A stretch of 64,000 nt of DNA, from IMG/VR virus record IMGVR_UViG_3300021171_000137; one strand, given 5' to 3'. Positions within the stretch are counted from its first letter, which is position 1. The number at the start of each line of letters is the position of its first letter. A program made the translations under genes and the position numbers. The notes below the pieces were generated by a model that worked only from the letters and a program-made list of their open reading frames with translations, was not told where the DNA came from and did no database searches. Origin of the DNA: an uncultured virus (IMG/VR IMGVR_UViG_3300021171_000137) (Duplodnaviria > Heunggongvirae > Uroviricota > Caudoviricetes). Positions 1,738 to 37,319 of this stretch are shown here, piece after piece.

Positions 1738-1967
1738 GCGTGGCCTTCAAGGTGATCGGATCGGCATCTGATCCGCTAGGCCGTCGGCCAGGATTCCCAT
1801 GTCGGCGTCCAGCCAGCCGGCGCGCCAGCTTTTCGCGGCGAACTCGCCCACGGTCTTTGCGCTGGGGCAATGCGAGAGGCCGTAACCGTCGCACCGTGAT
1901 TTCGAGCCGTCGCGAAACATGCCTTCATTCCACTTCGGCGGATCTTCCGCGCTACTGAACCGATCGA

Positions 1968-2225: not shown

Positions 2226-2521
2226 GCCGATCCCTTCCGCGCCGCGGCCCGTTCCGCCAACGCCTGCGCCACGATCTGGCCGACGCGCTGCTTGGTCAAG
2301 CCGTGCATTTCGCCGATTTCCTCCAGCGTCATCTTGCCCTCTTCCCGCAGCGCAAGAATCCCCTGACGGAACTCGGCTTTTTCCGCGCGCGCCTTCCTCG
2401 ATTCCTCCGACATGGCCCGCGGGAATGGTTCGACCCGTTTCTTCTTAATGATCTTTTTCCTCACCACGTCGCATCCCTTTTCGGCCTCGCCGACGATTTT
2501 ACGCTGAAAGTCAAGTTGCAT
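2222..2521 (-). CDS. Helix-turn-helix protein (sigma-70 region 4-like)
   Basis: MTLEEIGEMHGLTKQRVGQIV. Confidence 0.65.
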   Translation of the reverse strand: MQLDFQRKIVGEAEKGCDVVRKKIIKKKRVEPFPRAMSEESRKARAEKAEFRQGILALREEGKMTLEEIGEMHGLTKQRVGQIVAQALAERAAARKGSA

Positions 2522-2530
2522 GTCTAGGGT

Positions 2531-3322: not shown

Positions 3323-3959
3323 GGACGGTTTCCTTCACGGGGATTAGCTTTTCCGGGTGCGGCACCCAGCCCTCGATCCTCTTGCGCTGCCAGTCTGCGT
3401 ATTTGGCCAGCTGTTCGGCCTTGGGGCGGACAGAGCGCTTGGCGTAATCGGCGTTATGGTGGCTCGCGACCATCAGCGGCGTGATTTCGATCGAGCACTT
3501 GTTCACGGCGTCCCACTGGAAACCCGGATCGCCAATGCCGAATTCCAGGCCTTTGAAACGACCGCTGTCGACCTGGACAGCCCACTTCAGGCCGTGCCCC
3601 ATGTCCTTCTTCACGATCGCGCCTTGAACCCATTCGTATTCGCTGCGGCCCCACCTGATCACCTGGGGTGCATCGCGGTGGCTCATGTACACATGGCACA
3701 CGCCGACGGCTTCGGTTGCCGGCTGCTCGAGCTGTTCGGCCCTCGTGACCAGGCTGGCCGATTCCTTCGTTGACCACTTGATCATCCCCTCGATCAGGCT
3801 GATGTCCTGCTCGAAAGGCAGATGGTCGGCGCCGCTGCACACACCGCTGAAGAACCCCCAGCGCTTTGTGTAACCGTGCTTCGAAAGCTTACCGCCCGGA
3901 AGCATCTGCGGACGCCCGCAGACCTGGCAGTGCCCTTGGTGAGTCGATTTACTGGCCAT
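3315..3959 (-). CDS. Hypothetical protein with N-terminal Zn-binding motif
   Basis: GHCQVCGR...HGY...CSG; start at MASKST. Confidence 0.6.
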   Translation of the reverse strand: MASKSTHQGHCQVCGRPQMLPGGKLSKHGYTKRWGFFSGVCSGADHLPFEQDISLIEGMIKWSTKESASLVTRAEQLEQPATEAVGVCHVYMSHRDAPQVIRWGRSEYEWVQGAIVKKDMGHGLKWAVQVDSGRFKGLEFGIGDPGFQWDAVNKCSIEITPLMVASHHNADYAKRSVRPKAEQLAKYADWQRKRIEGWVPHPEKLIPVKETVHA

Positions 3960-4254
3960 GTGGCATTCCACCCATGATGTTCGCGGCAACGGCGGCCGGC
4001 TCGCGGCCTTCAACGAAGCCCTCGTGGATCAGCACGTCGTTCGCAGGAATCATGACGATTCCCTGAGCGTCGGAACGGTCCAAGCCAAAGGCCTCGATCG
4101 CCACGGTGACCGCTTCCCAGTATTCCAGGTCGCTCATGACGCCACCGATTCGGAGGCCGACATTCCGACCATCACGACCACCGCGAAGACCGCCATCACG
4201 ACACCGAAGACCACCATTTCAACCTCCTGAAAGAACCAACCAACCACAGAACGA

Positions 4255-4296
4255 AGCATAGCCCAGGTAAACCAGTAAGTCAAGCGTTATGTCCAG
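4255..4296 (-). promoter_or_regulatory. Leftward sigma70 promoter with 12-bp-spaced repeats
   Basis: TTGACT-17bp-TATGCT on minus strand; CTGGAC/CTTGAC/GTTTAC at 12-bp period. Confidence 0.7.
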
Positions 4297-4326
4297 GGAA
4301 AAGGGCGGCTATTTCCGGCCATTTTC

Positions 4327-4368
4327 CTTTACTGAACACTTGACACGACGCTTTACCTTTGATACGCT
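4327..4368 (+). promoter_or_regulatory. Rightward sigma70 promoter with 12-bp-spaced repeats
   Basis: TTGACA(4340)-17bp-TACGCT; CTTTAC/CTTGAC/CTTTAC at 4327/4339/4351. Confidence 0.7.
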
Positions 4369-4407
4369 GCATCTGTGATTGGGGTTCGATGGAAAAGGAG
4401 GTTCCCC

Positions 4408-4716
4408 ATGCCAGTCAGTGCAGTGCCCGATTTCTCGAAGACGGTTGCGGCCGTCGTCCTGGGCAAGAAAGTCACTCAGGGTCAACTCTCGAAGGCCTTC
4501 GACCTGGTCGCGCCGAAAACCGGCCCCGGGACGGCCTGGAAAAACCCGATCGATACGGAAGTCCTGATCGCCAAGCACTTCAAGATGCTGGTGATCCGGG
4601 AGGCCGTGATCCACATGACCGGGTCCGTGCCGACCTTCACCCCGGTGCGCGTCCTGAAGTCCGGGTGCGTGTACCGCGTCAAAGCGGCCGGCTACTACGC
4701 CACCATCGGAGCCTGA
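4408..4716 (+). CDS. Hypothetical early protein
   Basis: AGGAGG RBS before ATG 4408; first gene after promoter. Confidence 0.7.
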   Translation: MPVSAVPDFSKTVAAVVLGKKVTQGQLSKAFDLVAPKTGPGTAWKNPIDTEVLIAKHFKMLVIREAVIHMTGSVPTFTPVRVLKSGCVYRVKAAGYYATIGA

Positions 4717-6047
4717 CAGATGGCCACTCTGAACGATGCCATCGCGGCCAACCGAGCCCGCGAAGCGGCTAAGCGAGACGTGACGCTGGCCAGCGGAAAG
4801 ACAGTGACCCACACGCGCCACCCGGACGGGGCGTGGCTGGTCGACCAGGACTTGACCGCCGACGAATGGCTTCAGTACGTCGGCCTTGTGAAGGGCAGGA
4901 TTTCCGACTTTGCCAATGATGCAGATCGCGAGGATTTCGATGCACGCCGTTAACGTTCTGGAAGCGATGTGGAACCTGGGAGCCTGGGTCGAAGCCGCGC
5001 GCGTGGCGCGCTGGCTGGCCGCGGGCGTGTCCGTCTTCATGGCGGCGCACTACCTCGCATCGCTGGGCGTGCCGCTGGGCATGGCTCGCGCGATCCTGCT
5101 GGGAGCCTGACCGTGAATGATGCGATAACTGCGGCACTCGCCGCGCTGAAAGAGCTTGACCGTGCGATGTTGCCGATAGATACGTCTGATTTACCGGCCG
5201 AAGTGCCGGAAGCAATCATCGCTACTCGATCCGCAATCGCCGCAATCCACGCGACCATGGCAATTCCAACCCTCGAACAGACCATCGAGCGCATTAAGCG
5301 TGAGATTGTCGCGGATATCCTGAATCCGCCCGACGGCTTCAAGGTGATCCCGCATACCGTCGCCAGCTTCGAGGAACTTCACAACTACCGCGACGCGAAC
5401 TGTTACGGCGGGTTTTGTGATGACGACTTCGCCGATGTCCTGATTGCGCATTTCGGCGGCCGCGACGAACACGAGGGAATGCCGGACGCCATGCTGGACT
5501 ACATGAACGCGGCGCACGCCGCGATCGACGCGTGGATGCGTTCCGGCGAACTTGCCACCCTTCTGAAAGCCTGAACCCATGGCCGATGCCCAACGCTTCG
5601 AATACTGGGACACGCCCACGCTCGCCGAGTGCATACGTCTAATGCGTGCCGAACTGCGCCGCCGCTCGCTGGACTGCTTCATCGAGCGCCGCAGCGGCCC
5701 GCGCCTGGGACCGGAGCACCGCCGCGGCTGGGACCGGCTGCCGGCGCCCACGGATCAATCCGTCATCATGGAAGGGGAAGCATGAAACAACCGACCAAGG
5801 CTGAGGCCCGCGCGATCGCCAAGCAGGGAAAGGCGCTCGAGCGTGAGCTGGCCGCTGAGGCAAAGGACATCGCCGAGGCTGAACAAATGGGTGTGACGGT
5901 GACGGTGTACGACAGTCACACCGAGGCGCGCAAGGGCTGGGTTCGCCACTTGAACAACCAGTTCCGGCCGGGATTGCAATCCGAAACCACCCTGCCCTGC
6001 TGGCTCAAAATCTTCGGCTTGCGCAAACGCAAGAAGGAAGTAGGCAA

Positions 6048-6341
6048 ATGAAAACACAGACGCATACCCACCCCAGGTACCTGGGCCGCACGGTCGAGTG
6101 GGGCCATTGGGGCATCACGTTCATGGACAAGCAGCCCGACCCGATGATGAACTTTGGCGTCATCGTGGCCACGATTCCGTTCGGAGTCGGCGCCCGCGGC
6201 CCCGTCGACGGCACGGCGGGATCGGATCTTCGCAAGGCGTACGAAGCCATGTGCCACAACTGGGTCGACAACGGGATCCTGCCGGCCGGCTGCATGCTGT
6301 CCATGGACCTGGCCGCGCAAGCGGCTCTGGACAACGTGTGA
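6048..6341 (+). CDS. Hypothetical protein
   Basis: Coupled ORF in rightward operon. Confidence 0.55.
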   Translation: MKTQTHTHPRYLGRTVEWGHWGITFMDKQPDPMMNFGVIVATIPFGVGARGPVDGTAGSDLRKAYEAMCHNWVDNGILPAGCMLSMDLAAQAALDNV

Positions 6342-6850
6342 AGCCGCCGACCAAAGTCGAAAGGCGTCTCGACCTGCTGGCCGCCGCGCGCCTGAGCCCG
6401 GACCGGTTCAAGTTCGAGCCGGCCCGGTACCCGCCGGAGAAGATCGATTACCGCGCGTTCATGGCAGCGCCCTGGAACCTGTCCGAGCAGGACGCGCGCG
6501 ACACCGCGGCGCGCATGGCCCGCGAATGGGTCCTTCGCAGCGACACCTACCAGGTCGCGATGATCGATTGGCCCTGCTTGCCGCTGGCCGTCACGCTCAC
6601 GCACCTGTCGATCAAGCGGATCGATCGCGAACCGATTCACGACTGGCGCGAATTCCAGATGATCAAAAACACGCTGTGCGGACCGGAGCGGGAAGCGGTC
6701 GAAATCTACCCGGCCGAGTCGCGCCTGGTCGACACGGCGAACCAGTTTCATCTGTGGGTTCTACCCGAAGGTCGGCAGTGGCCCATGGGCTGGGACACGC
6801 GCCTCGTCACCGAAGACGAACCGGGACAGGTGAAACAGCGGCCTTTTTGA
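6338..6850 (+). CDS. Conserved phage hypothetical protein
   Basis: HLSIKRIDREPIHDWREFQMIKN...EAVEIYPAESRLVDTANQFHLW motif; GTG start overlaps the previous stop. Confidence 0.7.
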   Translation: MKPPTKVERRLDLLAAARLSPDRFKFEPARYPPEKIDYRAFMAAPWNLSEQDARDTAARMAREWVLRSDTYQVAMIDWPCLPLAVTLTHLSIKRIDREPIHDWREFQMIKNTLCGPEREAVEIYPAESRLVDTANQFHLWVLPEGRQWPMGWDTRLVTEDEPGQVKQRPF

Positions 6851-6891
6851 TTGACTGAACGATTGACATCACGCTTTACTTGTGGGATCAT
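6850..6891 (+). promoter_or_regulatory. Sigma70 promoter with 12-bp-spaced repeats
   Basis: TTGACA(6863)-17bp-GATCAT; ATTGAC/ATTGAC/CTTTAC at 6850/6862/6874. Confidence 0.65.
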
Positions 6892-7793
6892 GCGTGTATG
6901 GAAACGAAAGCGATCAAGGCCGAAAAGTTCCTGGGTGAGTTCTACCACCATGGCGCATACGTCGGCAGCCTCTACAAAAGCGAAGGCGGCTACATCGTGC
7001 GCGAGGTCAAGCCCTTCGCCCGCAGAGTCGGACCGGTCCTTTTCGAAGGCAAGACGTTTGCCGCTTCCGAGCTGATGAAGATCGGGCAAACCAACCTGGG
7101 ATACGGCGTGATCCGCCGCTATTCCTTCGCAACCCTGGGGACACAGTGACCATGGAAACCGTGCTTTTCACCCAGACCAACGAAGAAACCGGCGTTCGCG
7201 CCTCGGTCTTCGCGTTCTGCCGCGGCGGATTCGGGGTCGAAATCTTCGACGTCGACGCTGAGCAGGCGCTTCCGTCGTTGCGCGTGTTCCCCAAGCAAGG
7301 CGACGCCGAAACCTTCGCCGCTCTGTGCTGCGCGTAAATGCTGCTCATCATCTTCGCCTTCTGCCTCGCAACCGGCTGGCTGATCAGCCGCCCGATCGTT
7401 CGAATTCTGGGAGTCGCCAGATGAGCGCCGTAAAGAAAGCCCGCCTGAGCCCCGAACAGCGCAAGGCGCTCGAGGCTTACAAGTTCGCGGAGCGCCAGGA
7501 AGATCGATACCTGGGTAGCGTGTTCGCCAACGCCCACGGACAGGCGCAGTACGAAGCCAAGACGCGCGCCGCGTACGAACGCTGCAAGGCCCTCGGCATG
7601 GGCGTGGAACACGGCCTGTGACCGTCGCCGAAGCCAAGGCCTACCTGGGCTGGCACTACGTGCTGCACCCGGAATACGAGCTGGCCCGCAATCCCTGGCA
7701 TTCCATGAAACACGGCGTCAACGTCCGCTACACCTGGGGGCGCGTGATCGCCCGCAACATCCAACAGCGCCGCACGGCGCTTCGAAAGGTGGC

Positions 7794-23406: not shown

Positions 23407-24849
23407 ATGCCGTTCGATCGGCGCCCGCGGCTCAATCCCGTACTTAAACCGTTCTGGGACCAGAACACCGATCCGGCCACCGGCAAGCAGATTCGGATCC
23501 GGGTCCTGTACGGCGGCCGCGCCTCGAGCAAGACCTGGGACGCGTGCGGGCGCCTGATCTACATGGCCGACAACGCGCGCCTGCGGGTGTGCTGTTGCCG
23601 GCAGTTCCAGAACAAGCTCTCCGAGTCCGTTCAGCCGGTGCTGGTCGACACCATCGACCGGTTCGGCTTGGGGCGCCGGTTCATCGCGCACGAAGCCAAG
23701 ATCGTCAACAAGGCCACCAAGTCGGAATTCCTCTTCTACGGCATCTGGCGCCAGATTCGGGAAATCAAGGGCCTCGAGGGCATTGACGTCTTCCTTATCG
23801 AGGAAGCCGAGGCGCTGACAGAGGAACAGTGGCTCGTGATCGAGGCCACCGCGCGCAAACGCGGCGCCCAGCTCTGGATCATCTTCAATCCGTACCTAGC
23901 GACCGATTTCGTCTACCAGCATTTCGTGCTGAACCCGCCCCCCCGAACGATCGTTCGGCTGATCAATTACGAGGAAAACCCGTTCCTGGCGCCGGACTTC
24001 CTCGAAACGATCATCGAACTGAAGGCGCGCGATTTCGAGGAATACCAGCACATTTACCTTGGCGTGCCGAAGACGGACGAAGAATCGTCCGTGATCAAGC
24101 GGTCCTGGCTGATGGCCGCGGTCGATGCGCACTTGGCGCTGAACGTAGAGCCGAAGGGAGCGCGCCGGATCGGGTTCGACGTAGCCGACGAAGGCAAGGA
24201 TCTGAACGCCCAAGTCTTCGGGCATGGGCCGCTCGTTTCGTGGTCCGAGCAGTGGAAAGGCGGCGAAGACGAACTGCTGAAGTCCTGCACGCGCGTGTAC
24301 CGCGAGGCTACGAACCGCGGTGCCCATATCGTGTACGACTCGATCGGCGTGGGCGCCATGGCGGGCGCGAAATTCGGCGAGTTGAACTTGGCAAATCATT
24401 TGCACCCGCCAGCGCTCGAGCCGGACTATGCGAAATTCATCACGTACTCGAAGTTCAACGCGGGTGCCGGGGTCTGGCGCCCGGATGCGAAATACGCCAG
24501 AACGACCACGCAGAACAAAGACCAGTTCGCGAATCTGAAGGCTCAGACCTGGTGGCTGGTCGCTGATCGCTGCCGCAACACGTACAACGCGGTGCGCAAG
24601 GCCGAAAAATTCAAGGAAGACGAAATCATTTCGTTCGCTTCCGATACTCCGAACCTGCAAAAACTGATCGCCGAACTATCTACGCCGAAGCGAGACTTCG
24701 ATCAAAACGGACGAGTCAAGGTGGAATCAAAGAAGGATCTGCTGAAGCGCGAAGTGCCATCGCCGAATCTGGCGGACGCGTGCGTCAGCATCTTCGCCCC
24801 TGGCCTGGATCCGATGCGCATTTCCGCCGCGGCGATCGCAGGCGCGTAA
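23407..24849 (+). CDS. terL: Terminase large subunit (PBSX-like)
   Basis: YGGRASSKT, CRQFQN, IEEAE, IFNP, GFDVAD, SPNLADA motifs. Confidence 0.93.
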   Translation: MPFDRRPRLNPVLKPFWDQNTDPATGKQIRIRVLYGGRASSKTWDACGRLIYMADNARLRVCCCRQFQNKLSESVQPVLVDTIDRFGLGRRFIAHEAKIVNKATKSEFLFYGIWRQIREIKGLEGIDVFLIEEAEALTEEQWLVIEATARKRGAQLWIIFNPYLATDFVYQHFVLNPPPRTIVRLINYEENPFLAPDFLETIIELKARDFEEYQHIYLGVPKTDEESSVIKRSWLMAAVDAHLALNVEPKGARRIGFDVADEGKDLNAQVFGHGPLVSWSEQWKGGEDELLKSCTRVYREATNRGAHIVYDSIGVGAMAGAKFGELNLANHLHPPALEPDYAKFITYSKFNAGAGVWRPDAKYARTTTQNKDQFANLKAQTWWLVADRCRNTYNAVRKAEKFKEDEIISFASDTPNLQKLIAELSTPKRDFDQNGRVKVESKKDLLKREVPSPNLADACVSIFAPGLDPMRISAAAIAGA

Positions 24850-27843
24850 ATGAACTGGCTCGCGAAGGTTGCCGCGCTGGCGCGTGGCTGGCACCTCTCT
24901 CCCCCCTCGAAAGGCCCTGCGCCAGCCTCGTCCGCACTGGAAACGGTCGCCAGCGCGGCACCCCTCGGCACGCCGAACCGGCGTGCCCCGATGAGGATCA
25001 GCGACGAGGCCTTGGCCGCGGCTGGGCCGACTTCCGCCGGCACGAAATGGGAAACGGCTGACCCTCACCCGGGTGTGATTCCGAGCAAGCTAAAGCTCGC
25101 GATGGACTCGGACATGTCATCCACGTTCGACTGGATGACGAACAGCCGCTTTAGCGAGGGGATGACCTTCTTCGGTTACCCGTACTTGGCCGAACTGACC
25201 CAGCGGGCCGAATACCGCCGTCCGTCGGAAATCATCGCCAAGGCGATGACGATGAAATGGATCAAGTTCACCGCCACGGGAGAACAAAACAAAGACGACA
25301 AGATCGACGTGATCGAGGCCGAATTCAAGCGGCTCAAGGTGCAGGACCGGCTTTGCACGATGTCCGAGCATGACGGGTTTTTCGGCCGTGGGCAGCTGTT
25401 CCTAGACATGTTCGGGGTCGACGTGGAGGTCGACCGCACTGAACTGGCGATGCCGTTGCTCGATGTGAGGTCCAAGATCGGCAGAGGTATTCAGCAACTC
25501 GTTCCGGTCGAAGCGATGTGGACGTATCCGAATCGCTACAACAGCCAAAATCCGCTCAAACCGGACTTCTTCAAGGCGACCAGCTGGTATGTGATGGGCA
25601 CGGAAGTGCACGCCAGCCGAATGCTGACGTTGGTAAGCCGGCCGGTGCCGGACATGCTCAAACCGGTGTACGGGTTCGGGGGCCTGTCGCTCACGCAGAT
25701 CATGAAGCCGTACGTGGACAACTGGCTGCGCACGCGGCAGTCGGTGTCGGACCTGATCCACAATTTTTCCGTGATGGCGCTCAAGACGGACCTGACCGAC
25801 ATCATGAATGCGGGCGCCGGCACGCAGATGTTCAATCGAGCAGACCTTTTCAATCGGGCGCGCGATAACCGCAGCTTGTTCATGCTCAATAAGGACACTG
25901 AAGAACTCGACAACATCAGTGTTCCGCTGGGTACTCTGGATGCATTGCAGGCGCAGTCACAGGAACACCAGGCTGCGGTGACCGGCATCCCGCTCATCAT
26001 CATGTTCGGCATCACGCCCAAGGGCCTGAATGCGACGGCTGAGCCGGAACTGAAGACGTTCGGGCGCAATGTCCTGAGCTGGCAGCAATCGCTGTATACG
26101 CCGCCGATCACGCGAATTCTGAACATCGTTCAGCTTGCGAAGTTCGGTGAAATCGATCCTGAAATCGGTTTCAAGTACGAACCGTTGACGGACGACGATA
26201 TGAAGATCCTGGCCGAAACCCGCAAGGTGGAGGCCGACACCGACGAAGTGATGATCAATTCCGGCGTCATTTCGCCGGCTGAGGCGCGCAACCGGGTGGC
26301 CCAGCAGGAAGACTCGCCCTATTCCGGGCTGGACGTGAGCATGGTGCCCGAACCGCCTGGCGAGGAAGGGATGGGCCTGCCTGGCCTGGGTCCGGAGGGC
26401 GAGCCTGGACCCGAACAGCCGCCGAATCCGAACGCGGGCGCGGTGCCGCCCCCCAATGGAGCACGGCCGCCGGGCGCGCGCCCTAATGGCGCCGTGCCGG
26501 CCCACGATGAAAAGTGGATCACCGTACACGGCGGCAAAGAAGGCGGTGGCCAGCCGGTGCTGATCACCGAAGGCGGGGTGGTCAAGGGTGGCGCGGGCGG
26601 CAGCATGAACGGGATGGTGCTGCGCAAAGCCGGCAAGGAAGGCGCGGGCGAGGCGCCCAAGCCTGAGCATTCGGCCAAGCTCGAGGGGTTGCTGAAGTCT
26701 TTGCAGAACCGCAACCGCTCGAGCGCGGCGAGCATCAACCAGATGTCCAAGATCGCGGCCAACCCGAACCCGCGCCTACTGATGGCAGCGCCCACGATGG
26801 CCGACGGCGCGCCCGTGGTGGCCGATCTTCACGGTCGCGGGATTGCCGTGGCCACCGGCCACCGGGACATCATCGTGACGCCAAAGCGCGAACTGGGCGT
26901 TCGTTACGCGGTGGTCGAAGCCGATCAGATATCCACGTCCAACAGCGCTGACGGCGTGAAGAACGCCGACTACGCCAAAGACCCTGACAAGATGGTCGCG
27001 ATCAATAACGGCCGCACGGCCGGCGTCATCGAGGCCTACAAGAAAGGCACCGCGGATGCCTACAAGGCGGCGATCGCCGCGGGCGCCAAGGTGCACGGGA
27101 TCCCGGGCAAGACGATCCGCGCGATGAAATCGCCGGTACTGGTCCGGGTCATGGATGCAGACGACGTGTCCGAGGGCATAGCAGACGAGTCGAACACGAC
27201 GCAGACCTTGACGCTGTCGGCGGTGGAGCAGGCCCGAAACGACGCGGATCGGTTCGATGCGTCCCAGATCGATTACGACGATGATGGGCAGCCGTCCGAG
27301 GCCTCAGTGCGCGGTTTCATACAGACGATGCCGGCCTCGGAACAGCAGTCGCTTGCGCCGAACGGGCGCCCTACCCGCCAGGCGATAGACCGGATGCACG
27401 CGGCGACCTTCCACGCTGCTTACGGCGATTCGGAACTGGTCGGGCTGATGGCTCAGGCGACCGACCCGGAATCCAGAACCCTGATCGCCGGCATGAGCCG
27501 CGCGGCCGGCTCGATGGCCAAGCTGAAAGACGCGGGCGAACTGGACATCCGCGAACTGGTCACCGGTGCTGCCAAGCAAATCATCAACGCGGTGCGCTCC
27601 GGCGTGTCAGTGAAGAAGTTCCTGAAACAGGGCGATCTACTCACGAACAGCGCCGAAGGCGCCATCGCCAGCATGATGGCGGAGAACATTCGCAGCGGTA
27701 AGGCGATCGGCGAACGCTTGGGATCGGCGGCCGATTTCGCTTTCCAGGAATCTCAACGAGGCGGCATCGACATTTTCGGGGAGCAGATCCCGACCGCGAG
27801 CCGCGAAGACGTACTGAAGGGGATTGGTCATGCTGAGCCCTGA
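24850..27843 (+). CDS. DUF1073-type portal protein fused to a C-terminal DdrB/ParB-like payload
   Basis: Portal motifs FFGYPYLAELTQRAEYR and FGITPKGLNAT; Pro/Gly linker; then LQNRNR...GAPVV...YAVVEAD...NGRT...MKSPVLVRV. Confidence 0.85.
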   Translation: MNWLAKVAALARGWHLSPPSKGPAPASSALETVASAAPLGTPNRRAPMRISDEALAAAGPTSAGTKWETADPHPGVIPSKLKLAMDSDMSSTFDWMTNSRFSEGMTFFGYPYLAELTQRAEYRRPSEIIAKAMTMKWIKFTATGEQNKDDKIDVIEAEFKRLKVQDRLCTMSEHDGFFGRGQLFLDMFGVDVEVDRTELAMPLLDVRSKIGRGIQQLVPVEAMWTYPNRYNSQNPLKPDFFKATSWYVMGTEVHASRMLTLVSRPVPDMLKPVYGFGGLSLTQIMKPYVDNWLRTRQSVSDLIHNFSVMALKTDLTDIMNAGAGTQMFNRADLFNRARDNRSLFMLNKDTEELDNISVPLGTLDALQAQSQEHQAAVTGIPLIIMFGITPKGLNATAEPELKTFGRNVLSWQQSLYTPPITRILNIVQLAKFGEIDPEIGFKYEPLTDDDMKILAETRKVEADTDEVMINSGVISPAEARNRVAQQEDSPYSGLDVSMVPEPPGEEGMGLPGLGPEGEPGPEQPPNPNAGAVPPPNGARPPGARPNGAVPAHDEKWITVHGGKEGGGQPVLITEGGVVKGGAGGSMNGMVLRKAGKEGAGEAPKPEHSAKLEGLLKSLQNRNRSSAASINQMSKIAANPNPRLLMAAPTMADGAPVVADLHGRGIAVATGHRDIIVTPKRELGVRYAVVEADQISTSNSADGVKNADYAKDPDKMVAINNGRTAGVIEAYKKGTADAYKAAIAAGAKVHGIPGKTIRAMKSPVLVRVMDADDVSEGIADESNTTQTLTLSAVEQARNDADRFDASQIDYDDDGQPSEASVRGFIQTMPASEQQSLAPNGRPTRQAIDRMHAATFHAAYGDSELVGLMAQATDPESRTLIAGMSRAAGSMAKLKDAGELDIRELVTGAAKQIINAVRSGVSVKKFLKQGDLLTNSAEGAIASMMAENIRSGKAIGERLGSAADFAFQESQRGGIDIFGEQIPTASREDVLKGIGHAEP

Positions 27844-28003
27844 TGCGAAAGCGATCTGGAAATCCCCGGCTGGCGGGAACTTGGTGCGCGCGATGCTGGG
27901 ATTGAAACCGTGGGAGGAAGAGGATCGGCAGACGGCGCGCGAACTGGCCAAGCTAAGCATTCCGGAAGATGACGATGGCGAAGGCGGCGAAGACGACGAT
28001 TAA
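27830..28003 (+). CDS. 57-aa protein with acidic tail (not in the ORF track)
   Basis: ATG 27830 overlaps portal end; MLSPDAKAIWKSPAGG...EDDDGEGGEDDD, stop TAA 28001-28003. Confidence 0.5.
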   Translation: MLSPDAKAIWKSPAGGNLVRAMLGLKPWEEEDRQTARELAKLSIPEDDDGEGGEDDD

Positions 28004-28850
28004 AGTCGCCGCGCCTATCCACCCCAACGTTGGCCTCGAGGTCGAATACCGGCGCCGGCTGCTATTGCTGATTGCCCAGATGCACAACAGCGTCGTGCAC
28101 TGGCTCACCGCCGCGTATCGGGCGCACACGCCGCGCATGGCGCAGGACGACGCCCCATCGGTCATCCTGCGCCGGATCATCCGGGCTCTGGCCAAGCGCT
28201 GGCAGCAACGGTTCGATGAACTGGCCCCGGACCTAGCCGAGTATTTCGCGACCAAGGTTAGCGAGCGCACCGACGCGGCGCTGAAGGCGATTCTGGCAAA
28301 GCACGCTTTTTCTGTGCGGTTGCGCACAACGCCGCTCACCCGCGACGTCTGGCAAGCGACCACGGGCGAGAACGTGTCCCTGATCAAATCGATCCCGCAG
28401 CGCTACTTCACAGACATCGAAACCGAGGTCATGCGATCGGCCGCGGTAGGGCGCGACCTTGCGGCGCTGACCGACTACCTGGGGCCGAAGGTGAACCTGG
28501 CGCGTATCGGCCTGGGTCGCAAGCCCGGCGAGTCTAACAAGTCACTCTCGGCACGCACCGAACGCCGGGCCGCTCTGATCGCACGGGACCAGAACAACAA
28601 GGCGACCGCGACGCGTATCCGCGTGCGGCAGCATGAACTGGGGATCACCGAAGCGATCTGGGTGCACAGCGGCGGCGGACGCGAGCCGCGCCCGGATCAT
28701 GTCGCGTGGGGCGCAGCGCGAAAACGCTACAAGATCAGTGAAGGCATGTGGTCCGAGAAGGAACAGCAGTACATCTTTCCGGGCGAGTTGATCAATTGCC
28801 GGTGTGTCAGCCGGTCCGTGATTCCGGGACTCGGTCGAATGGAGTCGTAA
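27969..28850 (+). CDS. Phage head morphogenesis protein (MuF/SPP1 gp7-like)
   Basis: RAALIARDQNNK, WVHS...PRPDH, PGELINCRC. Confidence 0.88.
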   Translation: MTMAKAAKTTIKVAAPIHPNVGLEVEYRRRLLLLIAQMHNSVVHWLTAAYRAHTPRMAQDDAPSVILRRIIRALAKRWQQRFDELAPDLAEYFATKVSERTDAALKAILAKHAFSVRLRTTPLTRDVWQATTGENVSLIKSIPQRYFTDIETEVMRSAAVGRDLAALTDYLGPKVNLARIGLGRKPGESNKSLSARTERRAALIARDQNNKATATRIRVRQHELGITEAIWVHSGGGREPRPDHVAWGAARKRYKISEGMWSEKEQQYIFPGELINCRCVSRSVIPGLGRMES

Positions 28851-30245: not shown

Positions 30246-30959
30246 ATGACATCCCTGACTCCAGCGCAAGCGCGCGCCATTGCCAGCGGGGATGCGCCCA
30301 GCACGGCCGCGGCCGTAGCGCAGGCAATCAGCGGCGGGGGCGGCGGCGGTATGACGAATCCGATGACCGCTTCCGGCGATCTGATCGACGGCGGCACAAG
30401 CGGCACGCCGGAGCGGATACCGATCGGATCTACTGGCCAAGTCCTGACGGTCGTTGCGGGCGAACCAGCGTGGGCAGCGGCCACCGGTCTTGCCAATCCG
30501 ATGACCACGGCTGGCGACATCATCATCGGCGGGGTTTCCGGAGCAGCGGCAAGGCTTGGCATCGGCACCGCCAACTACGTTCTGACTTCGGTGGCGGGCG
30601 CTCCAGCATGGACTGCGCTTCCGGCCACTGGGAGTGCCCCACCGATTAACCCGCAAACCGGGACGAGTTATCACCCGGTTCTCGCCGATGCGCCACAGTC
30701 TTCGAATTACGAGGGCTGGGTCACCATGAACAACGCCTCGGCCAACAACGTGACGCTCGACCCGCACAGCACGACGGCCTGGGTCACGGGTACGCTCATT
30801 GTCGTGCCACAACTTGGCGCCGGACAGACGGCGTTCGTGGCAGGTGCCGGCGTGACCTTTGCGAACCCCAGTTCGCTCACGGCGCGCGCCCAAAACTCCA
30901 CCATATGGGCCAAATATTTGGGCAGCGATACCTGGCTGATCGGTGGGGACCTGACGTGA
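30246..30959 (+). CDS. Head/tail fibre-like protein
   Basis: Two NPMTxxGDxIxGG...RxxIG repeats; C-terminal QLGAGQ...WLIGGDL domain. Confidence 0.65.
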   Translation: MTSLTPAQARAIASGDAPSTAAAVAQAISGGGGGGMTNPMTASGDLIDGGTSGTPERIPIGSTGQVLTVVAGEPAWAAATGLANPMTTAGDIIIGGVSGAAARLGIGTANYVLTSVAGAPAWTALPATGSAPPINPQTGTSYHPVLADAPQSSNYEGWVTMNNASANNVTLDPHSTTAWVTGTLIVVPQLGAGQTAFVAGAGVTFANPSSLTARAQNSTIWAKYLGSDTWLIGGDLT

Positions 30960-31630
30960 CTGGCGCTTTAGCGACGCGCTATCGCAGCAGCATCATCGTC
31001 AGCACTGCGCTGCTGCACTTCGATGGCACGAATGGTTCGACCACCTTTACCGACGTTTACTCAAGTACGTGGTCGGGTAGTAGTGCGACGCTATCGACGG
31101 CACAGCAGAAGTTCGGCCCCAGTTCGCTGTTGCTTCCTGGCGGTGCTTTTATAAGCACGAGCAACGATATCTTCGCTGCGCTCCTTCAGGATTGGACCTA
31201 TGAGGCTTTTGTCTACGCCATCAGCATTGGGGGATCACAGGTTATCTTCGGTTCACAAGGTGCCGGATTTTCGGGAGTGCTTTTATTTCTAAACGGCGGC
31301 GTGATCACTTTGCTATGCGGCAGTGCTGACGGCGGTACCAATTGGAGTGTCGCGTTTACCTCGGGTGCAACTCTGTCAACGGGCACCTGGTATCACGTGG
31401 CAGGTGTCAGGCACGGAAATAATTTCAACACCTACTTGAACGGTGTTTCACAAGGATCCGCTACGTATAGCGGTTCAATTATCAAAGGCATGACGGGCCA
31501 GGCGATCGGAGCGGCTAATGCTGGCGGCACTAGCAGCTGGAACGGATACGTTGACGAAGCACGCATTTCCATGGGAGTCGCGCGCTACACAGCGAATTTC
31601 ACCCCGCCTGCGGCGCCCTTCACCTATTAA
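30956..31630 (+). CDS. LamG/concanavalin-like domain protein
   Basis: ALLHFDGTNGSTTFTD...WYHVAGVR...GYVDEARISMGVARYTANFTPP. Confidence 0.8.
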   Translation: MTGALATRYRSSIIVSTALLHFDGTNGSTTFTDVYSSTWSGSSATLSTAQQKFGPSSLLLPGGAFISTSNDIFAALLQDWTYEAFVYAISIGGSQVIFGSQGAGFSGVLLFLNGGVITLLCGSADGGTNWSVAFTSGATLSTGTWYHVAGVRHGNNFNTYLNGVSQGSATYSGSIIKGMTGQAIGAANAGGTSSWNGYVDEARISMGVARYTANFTPPAAPFTY

Positions 31631-31639
31631 AACGATGCC

Positions 31640-34600
31640 ATGCCATTCGATCCGGGCTACGCCGGCACTGCCGTTACCGAAGGCGCCGGCATTGCGTTCA
31701 TCACCCCGGACGGCCTGTGCCTGTTCCTGAAGCGCTCGAGCCGCGGCGATCACGCGGGCGAATGGTGCCTGCCAGGTGGCACCGCGAAGGATGATGAAAC
31801 ACCGCTCGAGACGGCTCGGCGCGAGGCGATCGAGGAAATTGGTGACATCCCGGAAGGAAAGCTGCGCGAGCTGGCGCATCTGACACTGGATGGCGTCGAA
31901 TTCGTCACCTTCGTGCAGCGCGTCAAAGATGACCTCTTCGCTCCGGAATTGAACTACGAACACACGGATCACATTTGGGCGCAGATCGACGATCCGCCCG
32001 AACCGCTGCACCCTGGCGTAGAACGCATCCTGCCGATGCTTGCCGCGGCGCGCATGGGAATGGACGCTGAGTGGGACGAGTCCAAGCACCCGCGCGACGA
32101 GGGTGGACGGTTCGGTGAGGGCGGTGGCGCTGCGCCATTCAACCGGGAAGCCAATCGGGCTAAACAAAAGGATCTACTGCGGCAATCCAATGCGCTGCGG
32201 GCGAGCAACCCACAGGAAAGTCGCCGTCTGTATGAACAGGCCAACGCGCTCCAGGAAGAAGACCTAGCCAACGAAAAGAAGGAAAAAACGGCCGCGAAAC
32301 GTGCCGCAACCGTGCAGGCGAAAAAGAGCGCTGCACAAGCTGAGCACATCGACGAGCACGGCTTCACGCGCGCCGCGGGCCTGAGCCCTGAGCACCGCGC
32401 GATCGAGCAGGGCTTCTACGACGCGATCCGCCACAACCCGAAGGCGCTGATCGGTACCTATCGCAAGCGCTTCGGCAACGTGATCGATCCGGACAAGGTG
32501 AAACTCCTGTCCCGATCGTTCGTCGGCGATCGCAAGCTCGCGCCGGTGGTTCATGAGCCCTCTTCGCTGCTGTCGAAGATGATCTTCACGGCGGCACTGA
32601 AGGACAAGGCCGCGCGCGGCGATAAGAGCCCGACCTTGTTCACGGCCGGCGGCAGCGGGTCGGGCAAGTCCGAAGCGATGGACGTCGCGATCCAGGCGCT
32701 AGGGCTGCCTGACGATGGCTTGACCTTCGATTCGACGCTGTCGAACACGAAGTCCGCGATCAAGAAAATCGACGAGGCGCTGAACACGGCCCCGGGCCCG
32801 GTCAGCATCGTTTACACGAACTCGCCCATCGAGAAGGCTTTCGCGTTCAACGCGATCCGCAAGCGGGCCGTACAAGGCGCAACGCTCGAGCACGCGCATC
32901 TGGGCGCCTCGAAAACGGTGCGCGAACTGGCGCAGCACTATGCGGGCAATCCCAGAGTCAAGATCAATATCCTGAACAATCAGGGCCACCTGGGCGATAT
33001 CCACGTCGGATCGATCGATGATGTTCCGAGGTATGATCCAGAGGTCATCAAGTCGTCTCTGAAACTCGTTGCCAAAAAGCTGCTCGACGATGGCCGAATC
33101 AAGCAAGACCGATACGAATATCTCACTGGATCCGGCCAAGGTGGCGGAAGCCGTGAAGAAGTTCGCGGCCAAACATCAGGGCAAGACCTTGGTGGATCTG
33201 GCGAACGAAGCGGACGACCAGGCGGACCAGGAAGCGCAAGCCTTCCTGAAGGATCATCCGGACGAGACAGTTCCGTAGACGATAGCGGGCGCCCTGCCCG
33301 CTTGGCTGGCGATGAGCTGGCCGAAGATCCCGAACTGGCATTCGATCGCGCCACCGGCGAACGGCTGGCGTTCGATCGCGCGAGCGTGCGCAGCTACGAC
33401 CAGGACGGCCGGCTGCACATCGAGGTCGCCAACATCAGCAAGGCGACCGTCAACCCGTACTACGGTTTCGAGATTCCGGACGCCGAAGAACTCGGGCTCG
33501 AACCACGCAAGGTCTATTACCTGCTGCGCGATCCGCAGGAATTGGCCAAGGCGGTTCCGACCTTCAACAACATTCCGCTCCTGTCCGATCACCGGCCCAC
33601 CACCGCTGATGACCTGGACAAGGAACTGGTGATCGGGTCGACCGGAACGGATGCAGCCTTCAATGCGCCGTACCTCACCAATTCGCTCGTGTTCTGGGAC
33701 GGGGACGCGTGCGACCAGATCGAAACGAATCAGACGCGTGAACTGTCGGCTTCGTACCGGTACGTGGCCGATATGACGCCGGGCGTATTCGAGGGGCGCC
33801 GTTACGACGGCGTGATGCGTGAAATCCGAGGCAACCATGTCGCACTGGTGCGGGACGGTCGCGCGGGATCCGACGTAATCGTGGGAGATAGCCAACCAAA
33901 GGAGTCAGGTCAGATGGGAACCACCCAGCAAGTGCTGTCACGGAAGGCCATGCTGGCGAAGGGAGCCTTGCTCGCGGTCCTTCCGCCACTGCTGGCAAAA
34001 GACGCGCGCCCCGCGTTCGCAAAGGATCTGAACAAGATCCTGATCGGGTGCGCCTCGGATAACTGGAAGACGAAAAAGCCCGAAATCATCGCCGCCGTTC
34101 GCAAGCTGAAACTGCCGGCGACTGTCCTGGCCAAGGATGCGAGCGTTGCATCCCTGACGCAATTGCTTGACGGGCTCGAGGGCGAAGCCGGGGGCGAGCC
34201 GCCAGCTGGCGAGCCGGCGCCCGGCGGCGCCGAACCGCTGGATTCCGATTATGGTGCAGCCGGTGATGCCCCGCCGGCCGAAGGCGAACCGCCAGCCGCG
34301 CCGGCCGCCGCAGCACCGGCGGCACCGGGCGCCAAGCCGGGGGAAGCCGATCCGGTGAACGAAATCCTGGAGGCTTTAAAGCCCCACCTGAAGCCTGAGC
34401 ATCACGCTTGGCTGGGCGAAAAGCTCAAGGCGCTGCGCCCCGCCGGCCCGCATGCCGAAATTGCGCCAGCGGGCTCGCCCACTCCGGCAGAAACGAAGCC
34501 GGCCCAGGATGAACCGCCTGGCGGCGAAGGTCAGCCCAAACCCCCAGCAACCTCACCCGGCAAGGACCCCCTCAAGGACAAGGACGCAGCCATGACCCAA

Positions 34601-34957
34601 GCAGTCAGCAAGGCCGCCATGGACGCGGCGATCGCCGAGGCGACCAAGAACACGCGCAAGGAAACCATGGCGCAGATGCGCGCCCTGGCCGACGCCGAGG
34701 CCTTCGTGCAGCCGTGGGTCGGCAAGCTCACCCTCGCCTGCGATACGGCTGAGGGCGTCTTCAAGGCGGCGCTCGAAGCCTTGGAAATCGACTTAACCGA
34801 CGTGCACCCGACCGCCTACAAGCACATTCTGGCCGCGCAGCCCAAGCGCCGGCCCGACGGTGAGCCGCCCCCGCGCATGGCGGCGGACTCCGCGGCGACG
34901 GTCGACAGCGTGATTGCCAGTCTGTCGCCAGCCGCGGCAGGCCTGCGCGTCGTGTAA
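31640..34957 (+). CDS. Polyprotein: NUDIX hydrolase + zeta-toxin-like P-loop kinase + DUF2213 prohead protease/scaffold
   Basis: Complete Nudix box [22 protein letters not shown]; Walker [19 protein letters not shown]...[11 protein letters not shown]...ELSASY...[13 protein letters not shown]. Confidence 0.88.
33090..33278 (+). CDS. Overprinted small acidic protein (candidate antitoxin)
   Basis: +1 frame inside the polyprotein linker; this frame has GC-rich third positions while the host frame is G/S/R low-complexity with many A/T-ending codons. Confidence 0.6.
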
Positions 34958-34993: not shown

Positions 34994-36169
34994 ATGTTCC
35001 CTGGACAAGTAAACACCGTACCCGGCGTAGGCGTGGCCGGCGACTTCGCAAGCACGAATATCCGCGCATCGGTGATCAACGGGCCGGGCGCGTTCGTGGC
35101 GGCCGCGGCCGGCATTGTCATCGGTGCCTTTGGCTGGGCCGATGCGAGCAACAGGTTCGTGAGCAACGCCGGGATCGGCGCGCCCACCGGCTTTGCCGGT
35201 CGGCACCCGGGCGCGGCCCTTATCACGCAATTCCTGGCCGACAACACCCAGATCATCCCGCAAGGCCTGGGCGTGACCCTGTACAGCGAGGGCGAATTCT
35301 GGGTACTGAACAGCGGCTCGAGCGCGTCGGCCATCAACAACAAGGCCTACGCGAATAACAGCACGGGCTTGGTGACGTTCGCCGCCACCGGCACCCCGCC
35401 GGCTGGCGCAACCAGCACGGCCTCGTCGATCGCGCTGAACAACACGACCGCTGGCCACCTGGACTTGCTGGCCGCCACCGGCTACGTCGTGCCGTACACC
35501 GGCGCGGGCGGCGGGGGCTTGCTGAATGTCACTGTCACGGGCGGTTCGATCGGGCCGGGAATGGTGCTGTCTGGCACCAACCTGGATCCGGCCACGACCG
35601 TCGTGAAACAGCTCACCGGCTCCACGGGATCGACCGGAACCTACCAGGTCAACATTTCGCAGACCGTGGGTTCGTCCGGCACGCCGATCACGCTTACGGC
35701 GCCGAACTGGTCGACCCTGACCATCGCGACCACTATCACGGGCGCCTTCCTTCCGGGGCAAACCCTGACCGGTACCGGCGTTGCCGCGGGCTCCACGATC
35801 TACCAACAGCTCACGGGAGCCACGCCCTCGACCAACGGGGCGACCTTCTCGGTCTTTTCTGCGATTGCCCAGACGGCGGCCACGTCGACCTCGATCACGG
35901 CTTCCGGCGGAACACTGACGGTCGGGGGCACGCTTACCGGCACCTTCGCGGTCGGGGATCTGCTGACCGGCTCGGGCGTGAACGCGGGCACGTCCATCAT
36001 CGCGCTGGGCACGGGCACGGGCGGGGCGGGCACGTATTACCTGAACCAGGGCCAAACCCTGTCCTCGCAGGCGATCAACGCCAACTCCGGCACCGAAACC
36101 AAGTGGTACGCGCTGTCGGTCGGTCAACCCGGCGAACTCGTCAAGATGAGCAGCTGGCCGCTCGGCTGA
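34994..36169 (+). CDS. Capsid decoration/cement protein with repeated beta-module insertion
   Basis: GVAGDFASTN N-terminus, GELVKMS C-terminus; lies between scaffold and capsid genes. Confidence 0.75.
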   Translation: MFPGQVNTVPGVGVAGDFASTNIRASVINGPGAFVAAAAGIVIGAFGWADASNRFVSNAGIGAPTGFAGRHPGAALITQFLADNTQIIPQGLGVTLYSEGEFWVLNSGSSASAINNKAYANNSTGLVTFAATGTPPAGATSTASSIALNNTTAGHLDLLAATGYVVPYTGAGGGGLLNVTVTGGSIGPGMVLSGTNLDPATTVVKQLTGSTGSTGTYQVNISQTVGSSGTPITLTAPNWSTLTIATTITGAFLPGQTLTGTGVAAGSTIYQQLTGATPSTNGATFSVFSAIAQTAATSTSITASGGTLTVGGTLTGTFAVGDLLTGSGVNAGTSIIALGTGTGGAGTYYLNQGQTLSSQAINANSGTETKWYALSVGQPGELVKMSSWPLG

Positions 36170-36206: not shown

Positions 36207-37319
36207 ATGGACAGAATGCCCGACAGACTCGCATACGACCTGTCGTTGCGCGAGCAGCGCGCGGTGCTCGATTTTTACCGCGAAACCTATGGCATCGCTT
36301 TTGACGGCGCTCAGGTGTTCGTCAAGCCTTCCTGGAAGCGCGACTTCAAGGGAGCCTACGACGCGCAGCCGCAGCTTGTTACCACCCCGCAGTCCGGCAT
36401 TCCGGCCTTCCTGGTCACGTTCCTGGATCCGGAAGTGCTGCGGATCCTGACCGCGAAGAACGCCGCGGCTGAAATCTTCGGCGAAGTCCGCAAGGGCTCA
36501 TTCGTCGACGTGACGGCCGTCTTCTCGGTCGTTGAACACACGGGCGAGGTCTCGACCTACGGGGACTTTTCGCAGGCGGGCAAGTCCGGCGCCAACACGA
36601 ACTTCCCACAGCGCGAAAACTACCTATACCAGACCATCGCCGAGTACGGCGAACTGGAAATGGAGCGCATGGGCGCGGCCAAGATCGGCTGGGCCTCGGA
36701 ACTGAAGCAGGCTTCGATCGTGAACCTGAACAAGTTCCAAAACCTGTCCTACTTCTTCGGCATCGCCGGCCTTCAGAACTACGGGTTGCTGAACGATCCG
36801 TCTCTTCCTGCGGCGATCGCGCCGGGACCAAAGGCGGCCGGGGGCCTGACCTGGTTCATCGGCAACAGCCCCAACGCGACGGGCCTGGAGGTCTACAACG
36901 ACATCGTCGCCCTGGTCGTGCAGCTCATTGCGCAATCGGGCGGCAACATCAACGCCGAATCCGACATGGTGCTGGGCATGTCGCCGCACTCGGCGGGCGC
37001 GCTCAATTTCACGAACACGTACAACGTGAACGTGAAAACGCTGCTTGGCACCAACTACCCGAACCTGAAGGTGGTTCCGGCCATCCAGTACGGGGCCCTG
37101 ACCACTCAGAACGCGCAAGGGTCGGCGGCGGGCGAAATCGTGCAGCTGATCGCTACCAAGGTCGAAGGCCAGGAAACGGGCTACTGCGCGTTCAGCGAAA
37201 AACTGCGCGCCGGCCCGATCATCCGCGACCTTTCGAGCTACAAGCAAAAGATGACGCAAGGAACGTGGGGCGCAGTCATCCGCCAGCCATTCGCCATCGC
37301 GCAGATGATTGGGGTCTGA
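36207..37319 (+). CDS. Major capsid protein (DUF2184-like)
   Basis: SGIPAFL, GEVSTYGD, YFFGIAGLQNYGLLNDP, TWGAVIRQPFAIAQMIGV. Confidence 0.9.
   Translation: MDRMPDRLAYDLSLREQRAVLDFYRETYGIAFDGAQVFVKPSWKRDFKGAYDAQPQLVTTPQSGIPAFLVTFLDPEVLRILTAKNAAAEIFGEVRKGSFVDVTAVFSVVEHTGEVSTYGDFSQAGKSGANTNFPQRENYLYQTIAEYGELEMERMGAAKIGWASELKQASIVNLNKFQNLSYFFGIAGLQNYGLLNDPSLPAAIAPGPKAAGGLTWFIGNSPNATGLEVYNDIVALVVQLIAQSGGNINAESDMVLGMSPHSAGALNFTNTYNVNVKTLLGTNYPNLKVVPAIQYGALTTQNAQGSAAGEIVQLIATKVEGQETGYCAFSEKLRAGPIIRDLSSYKQKMTQGTWGAVIRQPFAIAQMIGV

Follow-up and report, generated by a model that had tools for sequence, protein, structure and literature searches.

A small gene probably embedded out of frame in a phage kinase-head protease polyprotein, and its candidate role as a kinase inhibitor

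Can the DNA that encodes the linker of a phage polyprotein be a gene in its own right, and could that gene supply the inhibitor of a kinase carried by the same polyprotein? The question is raised by a 64,000-nucleotide (nt) sequence of an uncultured member of the Caudoviricetes (IMG/VR IMGVR_UViG_3300021171_000137), the whole of which we refer to as the window; it is a soil-metagenome phage sequence of 62% GC, and the IMG/VR contig L001 is identical to it. Its 1105-amino-acid (aa) open reading frame (ORF) joins a NUDIX domain and a zeta-toxin-type kinase to a head-maturation protease, and the linker that follows the kinase is overlain in the +1 frame by an ORF of 62 aa, which an initial annotation took for a candidate antitoxin gene. 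The +1 ORF is confirmed here as a real, conserved small gene and not a chance ORF; it very probably is a functional gene embedded out of frame in the polyprotein linker and translated from within it, and its product is, on balance, likely to inhibit the kinase, as judged from the predicted complex and the company that the gene keeps. The parts of the polyprotein, with positions in the window, are as follows.

31640-34957, + strand: the 1105-aa polyprotein ORF, as given in the ORF list; NUDIX, KHPR/GGG junction, zeta-type kinase, linker, DUF2213 head-maturation protease and scaffold-like tail
31682-32035, + strand: NUDIX hydrolase domain, aa 15-132 (Pfam PF00293, E 2.1e-13)
32363-33130, + strand: zeta-toxin-type P-loop kinase domain, aa 242-497, ng_zeta1-like by profile and fold match
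33090-33278, + strand: embedded small gene in the +1 frame relative to the polyprotein; acidic protein of 62 aa (isoelectric point, pI, 4.6) with two predicted helices; putative kinase inhibitor or immunity protein
33131-33301, + strand: polyprotein linker of 57 main-frame codons, rich in G, S and R; an out-of-frame reading of the small-gene DNA plus a short spacer
33302-33304, + strand: TTG codon 555, candidate start of the protease-scaffold part, from a start-codon scan
33389-33892, + strand: DUF2213 domain, aa 584-751 (Pfam PF09979, E 4.6e-46, profile positions 1-167 of 167; head maturation protease in PHROGs)
33893-34957, + strand: scaffold-like C-terminal region rich in A, P, E and K, lying within the phrog_2229 match that extends to aa 1090

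The small gene and its family

The small ORF is present as the initial annotation had quoted it, with a start inside the last codons of the kinase and a stop just ahead of the first protease motif. It begins at ATG 33090 (with TTG 33069 as an alternative), within main-frame codons 484-485 and 13 codons upstream of the last conserved residues of the kinase (YEYLTG, aa 492-497), and it ends at TAG 33276-33278, 24 nt upstream of TTG 33302 and about 60 nt upstream of the first LAFDRA motif of the protease (33335). The shift in base composition described in that annotation was likewise recovered: the GC content at third codon positions of the main frame is 0.30 at 33140-33259 (0.30-0.45 over the linker) against 0.65-0.93 elsewhere in the ORF, and the linker holds 16 glycines, 12 serines and 7 arginines among its 57 residues, while the small ORF, with GC of 0.75/0.33/0.77 at its codon positions 1/2/3, follows the normal coding pattern of this phage. 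With codon likelihoods learned from 13 further genes of the window, the +1 frame is ahead of the main frame by 56.8 bits over 33131-33271; in the controls, the main frame was the best one in 184 of 185 segments of 47 codons within the polyprotein ORF. A codon log-odds score against a nucleotide background did not separate the frames in the controls.

Homologues of the small protein were obtained from several searches. A phmmer scan against 1.84 billion representatives returned P0002 (67 aa, E 7.7e-5) and the 62-aa peptide itself (P0001), which had been called on a 2,070-bp fragment; a profile search added P0004 (E 3.8e-17) and P0005 (E 5.4e-11), both of 63 aa, and a small ORF in locus L023 matched the hidden Markov model (HMM) of the family with E 6.9e-9 in a local search. 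The members are 62-80 aa long, the four whose full sequence is known are acidic (pI 4.05-4.80), and they share the core G-x-T-L-L-D-L-A-N-E-A-D ... E-x-K-A-F-F-E-A-H-P-E-x-T; in the window copy the start, the stop and every family-invariant residue are intact. Standard annotation was expected to miss the gene, which is true of the full contig, where only the 1105-aa protein (P0006) is called, and untrue of the 2,070-bp fragment that yielded P0001. Two further candidates were set aside: P0003, a repeat protein of 836 aa matched in four stretches (E 1.2e-4), was taken for a repeat-driven match, and the match in L004, which consists of an ANEADAMA-like low-complexity stretch in an AT-rich phage, was taken for chance. 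No match to the region or the peptide was found by blastn and tblastn among 50,697 phage records, of which only MW202577 has the kinase (27.6% identity). Scans of genome contigs with the small-protein alignment and with P0008, the kinase protein of L023, gave nothing relevant, one P-loop match in an archaeal metagenome-assembled genome being disregarded; scans of viral contigs with the family alignments recovered only L013 and the window's own contig; PADLOC found no family for the kinase or the small protein, and the protein Atlas gave no match above its noise level.

Two loci carry an intact small gene in other surroundings. In L013, a portal-kinase fusion with the KHPR junction and a kinase 59-60% identical to that of the window ends in GSGSGS and a stop, and the small gene, which encodes P0005, begins 47 nt before this stop in the +1 phase and is followed by MuF. 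In L023, the small gene begins, again in the +1 phase, 59 nt before the stop of a 642-aa NUDIX-kinase (P0008) and is followed by a DUF2213 protease gene and a cement gene, so that NUDIX-kinase, small gene and protease are separate there and stand in the order of the window. Over 45 codons, the window and L013 differ at 17/11/28 sites of small-ORF codon positions 1/2/3, and at 2/0/7 sites in the 12-codon conserved core. Among the eight kinase loci with readable downstream DNA (a count that leaves out L018 and L021, which end at the contig edge), the small gene is intact in three (the window, L013 and L023) and a remnant in one (L016). The comparison supports the view that the small gene travels with the kinase in different fusion contexts (L013, L023). 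These small proteins form a new family, so far the strongest candidate for the inhibition of phage zeta kinases of the ng_zeta1 type. The small ORF is more than a product of chance on four independent grounds: (i) its composition, (ii) its homologues, (iii) its position and (iv) the pattern of substitutions between the window and L013.

Origin and maintenance of the overlap

It had been proposed that a whole toxin-antitoxin pair was inserted in frame into an essential head gene. This does not agree with L023, where the three genes lie next to each other in the same order and are separate; the window is therefore to be read as a read-through fusion of neighbours and not as an insertion. The kinase frame holds no stop codon over the small-gene stretch in the window, two in L023 and seven in L013, and the protease of L023 is in another phase than its kinase, so that both the loss of stop codons and an in-phase junction were needed. 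On this comparison of loci, the reading as a small gene came first, and the polyprotein linker was overprinted on it. The high GC content at the third positions of the small gene makes T-initial stop codons rare in the kinase frame; synonymous re-coding left the main frame open in 3.7% of 20,000 trials, a post hoc figure for a case that was picked for being open.

The junction occurs in independent material. Over 33046-33420 the sequence recurs without a difference in L005, a separate metagenome contig of 2,070 bp; the polyprotein is called as one identical protein (P0006) in public data, and P0007, a protein of 1112 aa from another metagenome contig (32,740 bp), is 95% identical in the kinase region, shares the domain order and runs through the linker into the protease without interruption. 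The identity of L005 and the same fusion in P0007 argue that no assembly slip is involved. Among 19 sequencing runs, six DNA runs contain all sampled words, each of them being marked as a possible source of this DNA; four DNA runs (X10, X12, X13 and X14) searched at 80% likeness gave identical short contigs or unrelated matches of 35-45 bases, with no variant letters. The P0007 protein, otherwise nearly identical, also shows a swap of modules, in which a GNAT acetyltransferase (PF00583, precomputed) replaces the charged, coiled middle segment at about aa 165-240 of the window protein.

The differences between the window and P0007 bear on how the small gene has been kept. Of the 49 linker residues that overlie the small ORF, 10 differ, and each difference is explained by a single nucleotide change, nine at main-frame position 1 (small-ORF position 3) and one from TTG to CTG. 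All 10 inferred changes are synonymous in the small ORF, as against 56 of 132 elsewhere in the protein (Fisher p 3.2e-4) and 82 of 295 changes under a uniform mutation model. In amino acids, the linker has diverged by about 20% (10/49) and the kinase by about 5% (13/242), a fourfold difference in rate. From these protein-level differences we infer selection on the small gene after the fusion, and what defines an embedded gene, a complete ORF inside another ORF with evidence of selection on the inner frame, is found here in the sequence. The idea of the initial annotation that the small-gene DNA doubles as the polyprotein linker is thus upheld by coding signal, homologues and substitution pattern.

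The kinase, its predicted partner and rival explanations

That the upstream domain is a zeta-toxin-type kinase, as had been suggested when the locus was first annotated, is supported by sequence profile and structural model, in both of which it resembles ng_zeta1. The domain has a Walker A motif, GGSGSGKS (aa 337-344, 32648-32671), and the fold of a P-loop phosphotransferase. A profile of nine homologues matched the Zeta_1 toxin of Neisseria gonorrhoeae (PDB 6EPH/6EPG) with E 4e-12 over 218 positions, and with an AlphaFold2 (AF2) model of predicted local distance difference test score (pLDDT) 87.7 the top six Foldseek hits were ng_zeta1 chains (TMq 0.76-0.78; 6eph_B 0.78), followed by the streptococcal zeta 3Q8X/1GVN, AvrRxo1 4Z8T and PezT 2P5T. 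Across the nine aligned kinases 52 columns are invariant, the window copy being one of the nine and hence included by construction. Relatives pass the cut-off of the Pfam family Zeta_toxin (L016 with 46.3 bits and L003 with 31.5 bits), and several database relatives carry PF06414 as a precomputed assignment. These database relatives are mostly portal fusions, some also with ddrB-ParB, and Phage_portal_3 is found together with the kinase in L013, L019 and L020. Zeta toxin kinases use ATP to phosphorylate UDP-sugars (NAD in the case of AvrRxo1) and are toxic when expressed; the toxicity of the phage kinase is presumed.

Co-folding of the kinase with the small protein gave a score of 0.80, while the best of three controls scored 0.00, and placed the small protein at the P-loop, in line with the pairing that had been suggested at first. 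The alignments behind it held nine rows for the kinase and five for the small protein; a mark of 0.80 was reached by 116 of 157 solved complexes and by 2 of 215 mismatched pairs. The runs share at least 92% of contacts, with a partner pLDDT of at least 79. On the kinase, the predicted interface includes residues 101, 103-104 (P-loop), 107-113, 165-168 and 200-215, with two invariant arginines among residues 165-168; the small protein contributes most of both its helices. Modelled by itself, it forms two helices with a pLDDT of 77 (0.53 in the Atlas). The family profile searched against all PDB sequences gave only repeat-driven or sub-threshold rows and no antitoxin, and Foldseek of the small-protein model against the PDB gave no match at E up to 10. 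We observed no signal of co-evolution at the interface, and the kinase interface is less conserved than the rest in every comparison, both where the small gene is intact (L013, 0.48 versus 0.62; L023, 0.42 versus 0.60) and where it is not (L016 and others, 0.35-0.46 versus 0.50-0.54). That the small protein is an inhibitor is its best reading, since it is linked to a kinase in three carrier contexts, is predicted to bind it and fits the rule by which a small ORF follows MuF toxins.

Several observations weigh against a functional small gene that arose between kinase and protease, was overrun by a read-through fusion and encodes an inhibitor covering the P-loop. The window kinase alone scores 19.5 bits on Pfam Zeta_toxin (PF06414), below the cut-off of 22.3, and in the P-loop part only. 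No Shine-Dalgarno motif lies upstream of ATG 33090, the ribosome-binding site having been called weak from the outset; most genes of this phage are likewise without a clear one. In L016, where a polyvalent protein at least 1772 aa long (1662-6977), with Pfam LPD22, has the kinase at aa 614-860, the main frame continues through a homologous G/S-rich linker into a region with an HExxH motif, and the +1 frame (4174-4350) is a truncated, basic and degenerate remnant of the small gene (HMM E 2.4e-4), from which it follows that small-gene DNA became a linker in at least one other architecture, with the inner gene decayed. The expectation that homologues would lie downstream of zeta-like kinases holds for L013 and L023 and fails for four of the eight kinase loci (L002, L019, L020 and MW202577/L003), three of which (L002, L019 and L020) have opposite-strand genes downstream of the kinase instead, and also for P0002, which lies on the + strand (L006, 6123-6326) between large opposite-strand genes on a 10.3-kb contig with no kinase. 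As a homologous kinase has been solved with a helical antitoxin bound, part of the co-fold score may be the model's memory of that complex. The comparison with P0007, being made at the protein level, leaves main-frame third positions (small-ORF second positions) invisible, and the open main frame of P0007 is weak evidence for selection on the fusion: 14 of 96 changes that are synonymous in the small ORF create a main-frame stop, and the probability of none in 10 is 0.21. The window and P0007 share one fusion event, so that in evolutionary terms the fusion has been seen once.

These points can be arranged into three other explanations. The decay in L016, where the stretch is a linker and the truncated, basic +1 ORF has several family-invariant residues replaced, and the lack of an evident ribosome-binding site in the window would both suit a decaying relic, in which only the polyprotein would still matter and the +1 frame would be open and gene-like merely because the fusion is recent; we hold this to be improbable, given that all 10 linker replacements relative to P0007 spare the small protein where a share of 28-42% is expected, that the start, the stop and the invariant residues have persisted, and that the faster divergence of the linker fits constraint on the other frame. 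Even less probable is that the 1105-aa ORF is not one protein, either through a kinase stop hidden by an assembly or frame error or through a +1 shift in the 41-nt overlap; in the latter version, a NUDIX-kinase would end at 33278 with the small protein as its C-terminal cis-inhibitor, and the protease would start at TTG 33302. This codon is the sole main-frame ATG, GTG or TTG between the stop of the small gene and the conserved N-terminus of the protease and hence a candidate for a separate protease-scaffold start, free-standing relatives begin at places corresponding to about aa 553-576 in the window protein, the linker is full of rare main-frame codons, and a cis-acting antitoxin domain is reported for EzeT. 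Yet the independent contig is identical and the six DNA runs, each a possible source, contain all sampled words; P0007 remains open in frame despite its 10 linker changes and a 3-nt indel downstream; no slippery motif was seen on reading 33090-33130; and no frameshift is needed, because the small gene has an ordinary ATG start in L013 and L023.

Unlikely, though well above the other two in our estimate, is a real, embedded small gene whose product is not an inhibitor of the kinase, but, for instance, an adaptor or chaperone that helps to assemble or package the kinase cargo, or else an early or anti-defence protein that has nothing to do with the kinase and lies there by coincidence. The absence of a kinase beside P0002, the four kinase loci that do without the gene and the lack of similarity to epsilon, PezA, ng_epsilon1 or any other solved chain all speak in its favour, and so does the neighbour of P0002 in L006, a 938-aa PLD-like protein with weak matches to models of defence systems (ZacB, E 1.8e-10). 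What the gene tracks, however, is the kinase and not the neighbouring head gene, as it lies between portal-kinase and MuF in L013 and between NUDIX-kinase and protease in L023 and the window, and the co-fold lies over the P-loop with a score far from that of the controls; a binding helper would pass the co-fold too, and only the position of the interface therefore argues for inhibition. Taken as a whole, a functional small gene, a read-through fusion and a putative inhibitor that covers the P-loop together make what is probably the best explanation, one that we favour with some reserve.

The head module, related systems and significance

The polyprotein gene lies in a head module, the other parts of which are as follows.

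23407-24849: terminase
24850-27843: portal with a C-terminal ddrB-ParB domain
27969-28850: MuF
up to 31630: several small genes, including a gene with a LamG domain
34994-36169: cement or minor capsid protein
36207-37319: probable major capsid protein, by size and position; no Pfam family

Within the polyprotein, part of the Nudix box (REAIEEIG) is found at 31820-31843. The protease part matches 642 phage records (tblastn), and phrog_2229 (head maturation protease) matches aa 574-1090 (E 5.5e-122); no Pfam family was found for the scaffold-like C-terminal region. A second profile, phrog_30637 (1119 positions), matches the window protease at profile positions 731-939, and it therefore seems that other phages also have long N-terminal extensions on this protease. 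At the N-terminus of the protease stands a tandem LAFDRA...LAFDRA, ten residues apart (33335-33382; MALDRA...LAFDRA in P0007), which could be a duplicated N-terminal or cleavage motif. In the homologous protease gene of BcepNY3 (L011, 4692-6083), a nested second product is annotated. In Burkholderia phage BCSR129 (L010, 3983-6491), a NUDIX gene stands on its own between MuF and the DUF2213 protease, followed by a 58-aa gene and an unannotated stretch of 550 nt. Upstream of the kinase module, a (K/D)-H-P-R-x3-G-x-F motif with a glycine run (32084-32140, aa 149-167) recurs in L013, L002, L019, L020, P0008 and P0009 and precedes the kinase in every carrier context seen (after NUDIX, after portal and in fragments); this KHPR...GxF...GGG motif, for which we found no description, may mark a junction or serve as a signal for processing. 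The portal, a protein of 997 aa, ends in a ddrB-like ParB domain (PF18763, E 7e-23) at the place where L013, L019 and L020 have a zeta-type kinase, and some database proteins have both, so its C-terminus looks like a swap site for cargo domains. Just upstream of the polyprotein (30246-31630), a 237-aa protein without a family and a 241-aa LamG/concanavalin-like protein overlap by 55 nt, the inside of a head module being an unusual place for lectin-like proteins. In a soil metatranscriptome run (X7), 0.91 of the sampled words of 32300-34000 are present, which is not informative on translation.

In classical epsilon/zeta pairs, the antitoxin gene comes first, and the statement of the initial annotation that zeta and PezT kinases are followed by small antitoxin genes does not extend to them; the order in the window, L013 and L023 is the reverse of that in type II epsilon/zeta modules, with the kinase ahead of the small gene. 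The two helices of the small-protein model also differ from the three-helix bundle of epsilon and PezA, to which no homology was found. The same statement does apply to MuF toxins, as a survey of temperate phages gives a small ORF after 89.4% of 191 MuF toxin genes (PMC5576092). The present loci resemble these polymorphic toxins in that a toxin-type domain is fused to a packaged head protein and a small ORF without known domains comes directly after it, an arrangement that L013 fits: a head carrier fused to a toxin-type domain is found in the window, L013, L019 and L020, and a small ORF after it in the window, L013 and L023. They differ in their carrier, which is the portal or the head protease, and in the window the carrier follows the toxin-type domain, and the fused ORF encloses the whole small ORF in another frame instead of preceding it.

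The closest solved relative of the phage kinase is ng_zeta1, which with ng_epsilon1 forms a pair on conjugative plasmids of Neisseria gonorrhoeae. According to its description, ng_zeta1 phosphorylates UDP-activated sugars and causes lysis, and ng_epsilon1 is an extended helical peptide lying over the potential ATP site of ng_zeta1 (PMC5923241; PDB 6EPG/6EPH/6EPI). Like ng_epsilon1, the phage small protein is short, helical, poorly ordered alone and predicted to sit on the nucleotide site of the kinase; as to differences, it resembles neither ng_epsilon1 nor any other PDB chain in sequence or fold, its gene comes after the kinase gene and overlaps the 3' end of it instead of preceding it, and the phage kinase occurs as a module within virion proteins (portal, polyvalent protein or protease), whereas ng_zeta1 is a free toxin encoded on plasmids. 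Polyvalent proteins, which are virion proteins with several enzymes, are the setting in which Iyer and colleagues describe zeta-like kinases, also fused to MuF, next to NUDIX, GNAT and DdrB-ParB domains (PMC5512222); LPD22 with the kinase in L016, ddrB-ParB in the window portal and GNAT in P0007 fall into the same pattern. A term search of that source showed no protease-fused kinase and no 'immunity protein', and the 'antitoxin' passages it displayed are not about this kinase. The literature on DUF2213 yielded nothing on fusions, a search joining polyvalent proteins, zeta toxins and bacteriophages gave no paper, that on zeta toxins together with portal proteins in phages only unrelated work, and that on overlapping or embedded phage genes and antitoxins no natural embedded antitoxin of this kind among the matches listed.

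Two other systems share part of the arrangement. The Rz1 gene of phage lambda is a complete small gene in the +1 frame of the larger Rz gene, both are expressed, and their products are partners of one lysis machine; the window has the same geometry, and the difference is that here the outer frame is, over the overlap, only a linker that arose when two genes were fused across a third, so that the inner gene predates it. EzeT is said to be a zeta toxin with a cis-acting antitoxin domain; it too has its inhibitor within the span of the ORF that holds the zeta-type kinase, as one polypeptide in one frame, while the candidate inhibitor here would be a separate product of another frame. Proteic inhibitors of zeta kinases, immunity genes for virion-borne toxins and embedded phage genes are each known, and their combination is not; new in the present case are the head-protease carrier, the putative inhibitor family, and how the overlap arose and is kept under selection.

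The following course of events would account for the arrangement. Ancestrally, the small gene would have lain between the genes for NUDIX-kinase and head protease, overlapping the last codons of the kinase, and in this lineage the kinase frame would have lost its stop codons and come into phase with the protease. Ribosomes that translate the NUDIX-kinase would then traverse the small gene out of frame, making the G/S/R-rich linker, and proceed into the DUF2213 protease-scaffold. From the way in which prohead proteases and scaffolds are incorporated, it may be expected that the N-terminal NUDIX and zeta-type kinase enter the procapsid together with the protease-scaffold part, and that maturation cleavage could release the NUDIX-kinase in the capsid as cargo for ejection into the next host. 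The small gene would still be translated from its own start inside the polyprotein ORF, and its product would most likely bind the kinase over the nucleotide-binding P-loop and silence it in the producing cell, in the manner of an immunity protein or type II antitoxin.

To conclude, the loci offer a clear natural case in which translation across an intervening gene joined its two neighbours into one polyprotein, while the intervening gene survived in another frame; L023 represents the unfused state, L013 the portal fusion, the window and P0007 the fused state, and L016 the decayed one. As gene callers give the long ORF alone on full contigs, the number of such embedded genes is probably underestimated. 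To MuF and portal, the carriers of virion-delivered effectors known so far, the head-maturation protease would be added. Synthetic gene entanglement has reportedly been used to stabilise toxin genes, and the window arrangement would be a natural counterpart to it, though that the arrangement is adaptive, a naturally 'entangled' toxin-inhibitor pair, is an idea we put forward only tentatively and consider rather doubtful. If it is true, deletion of the inhibitor gene, lying inside the linker, would also break an essential head gene, and the passage of ribosomes through the linker would compete with initiation on the inhibitor gene, the linkage and the competition together fixing how much free inhibitor there is relative to capsid-bound kinase; any kinase remaining in the cytoplasm would be kept silent, while the copies that the protease takes into proheads would reach the next host free of inhibition. 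A virion-delivered effector would here be built and stabilised together with its immunity in a new manner, by means of a new antitoxin family for ng_zeta1-type kinases.

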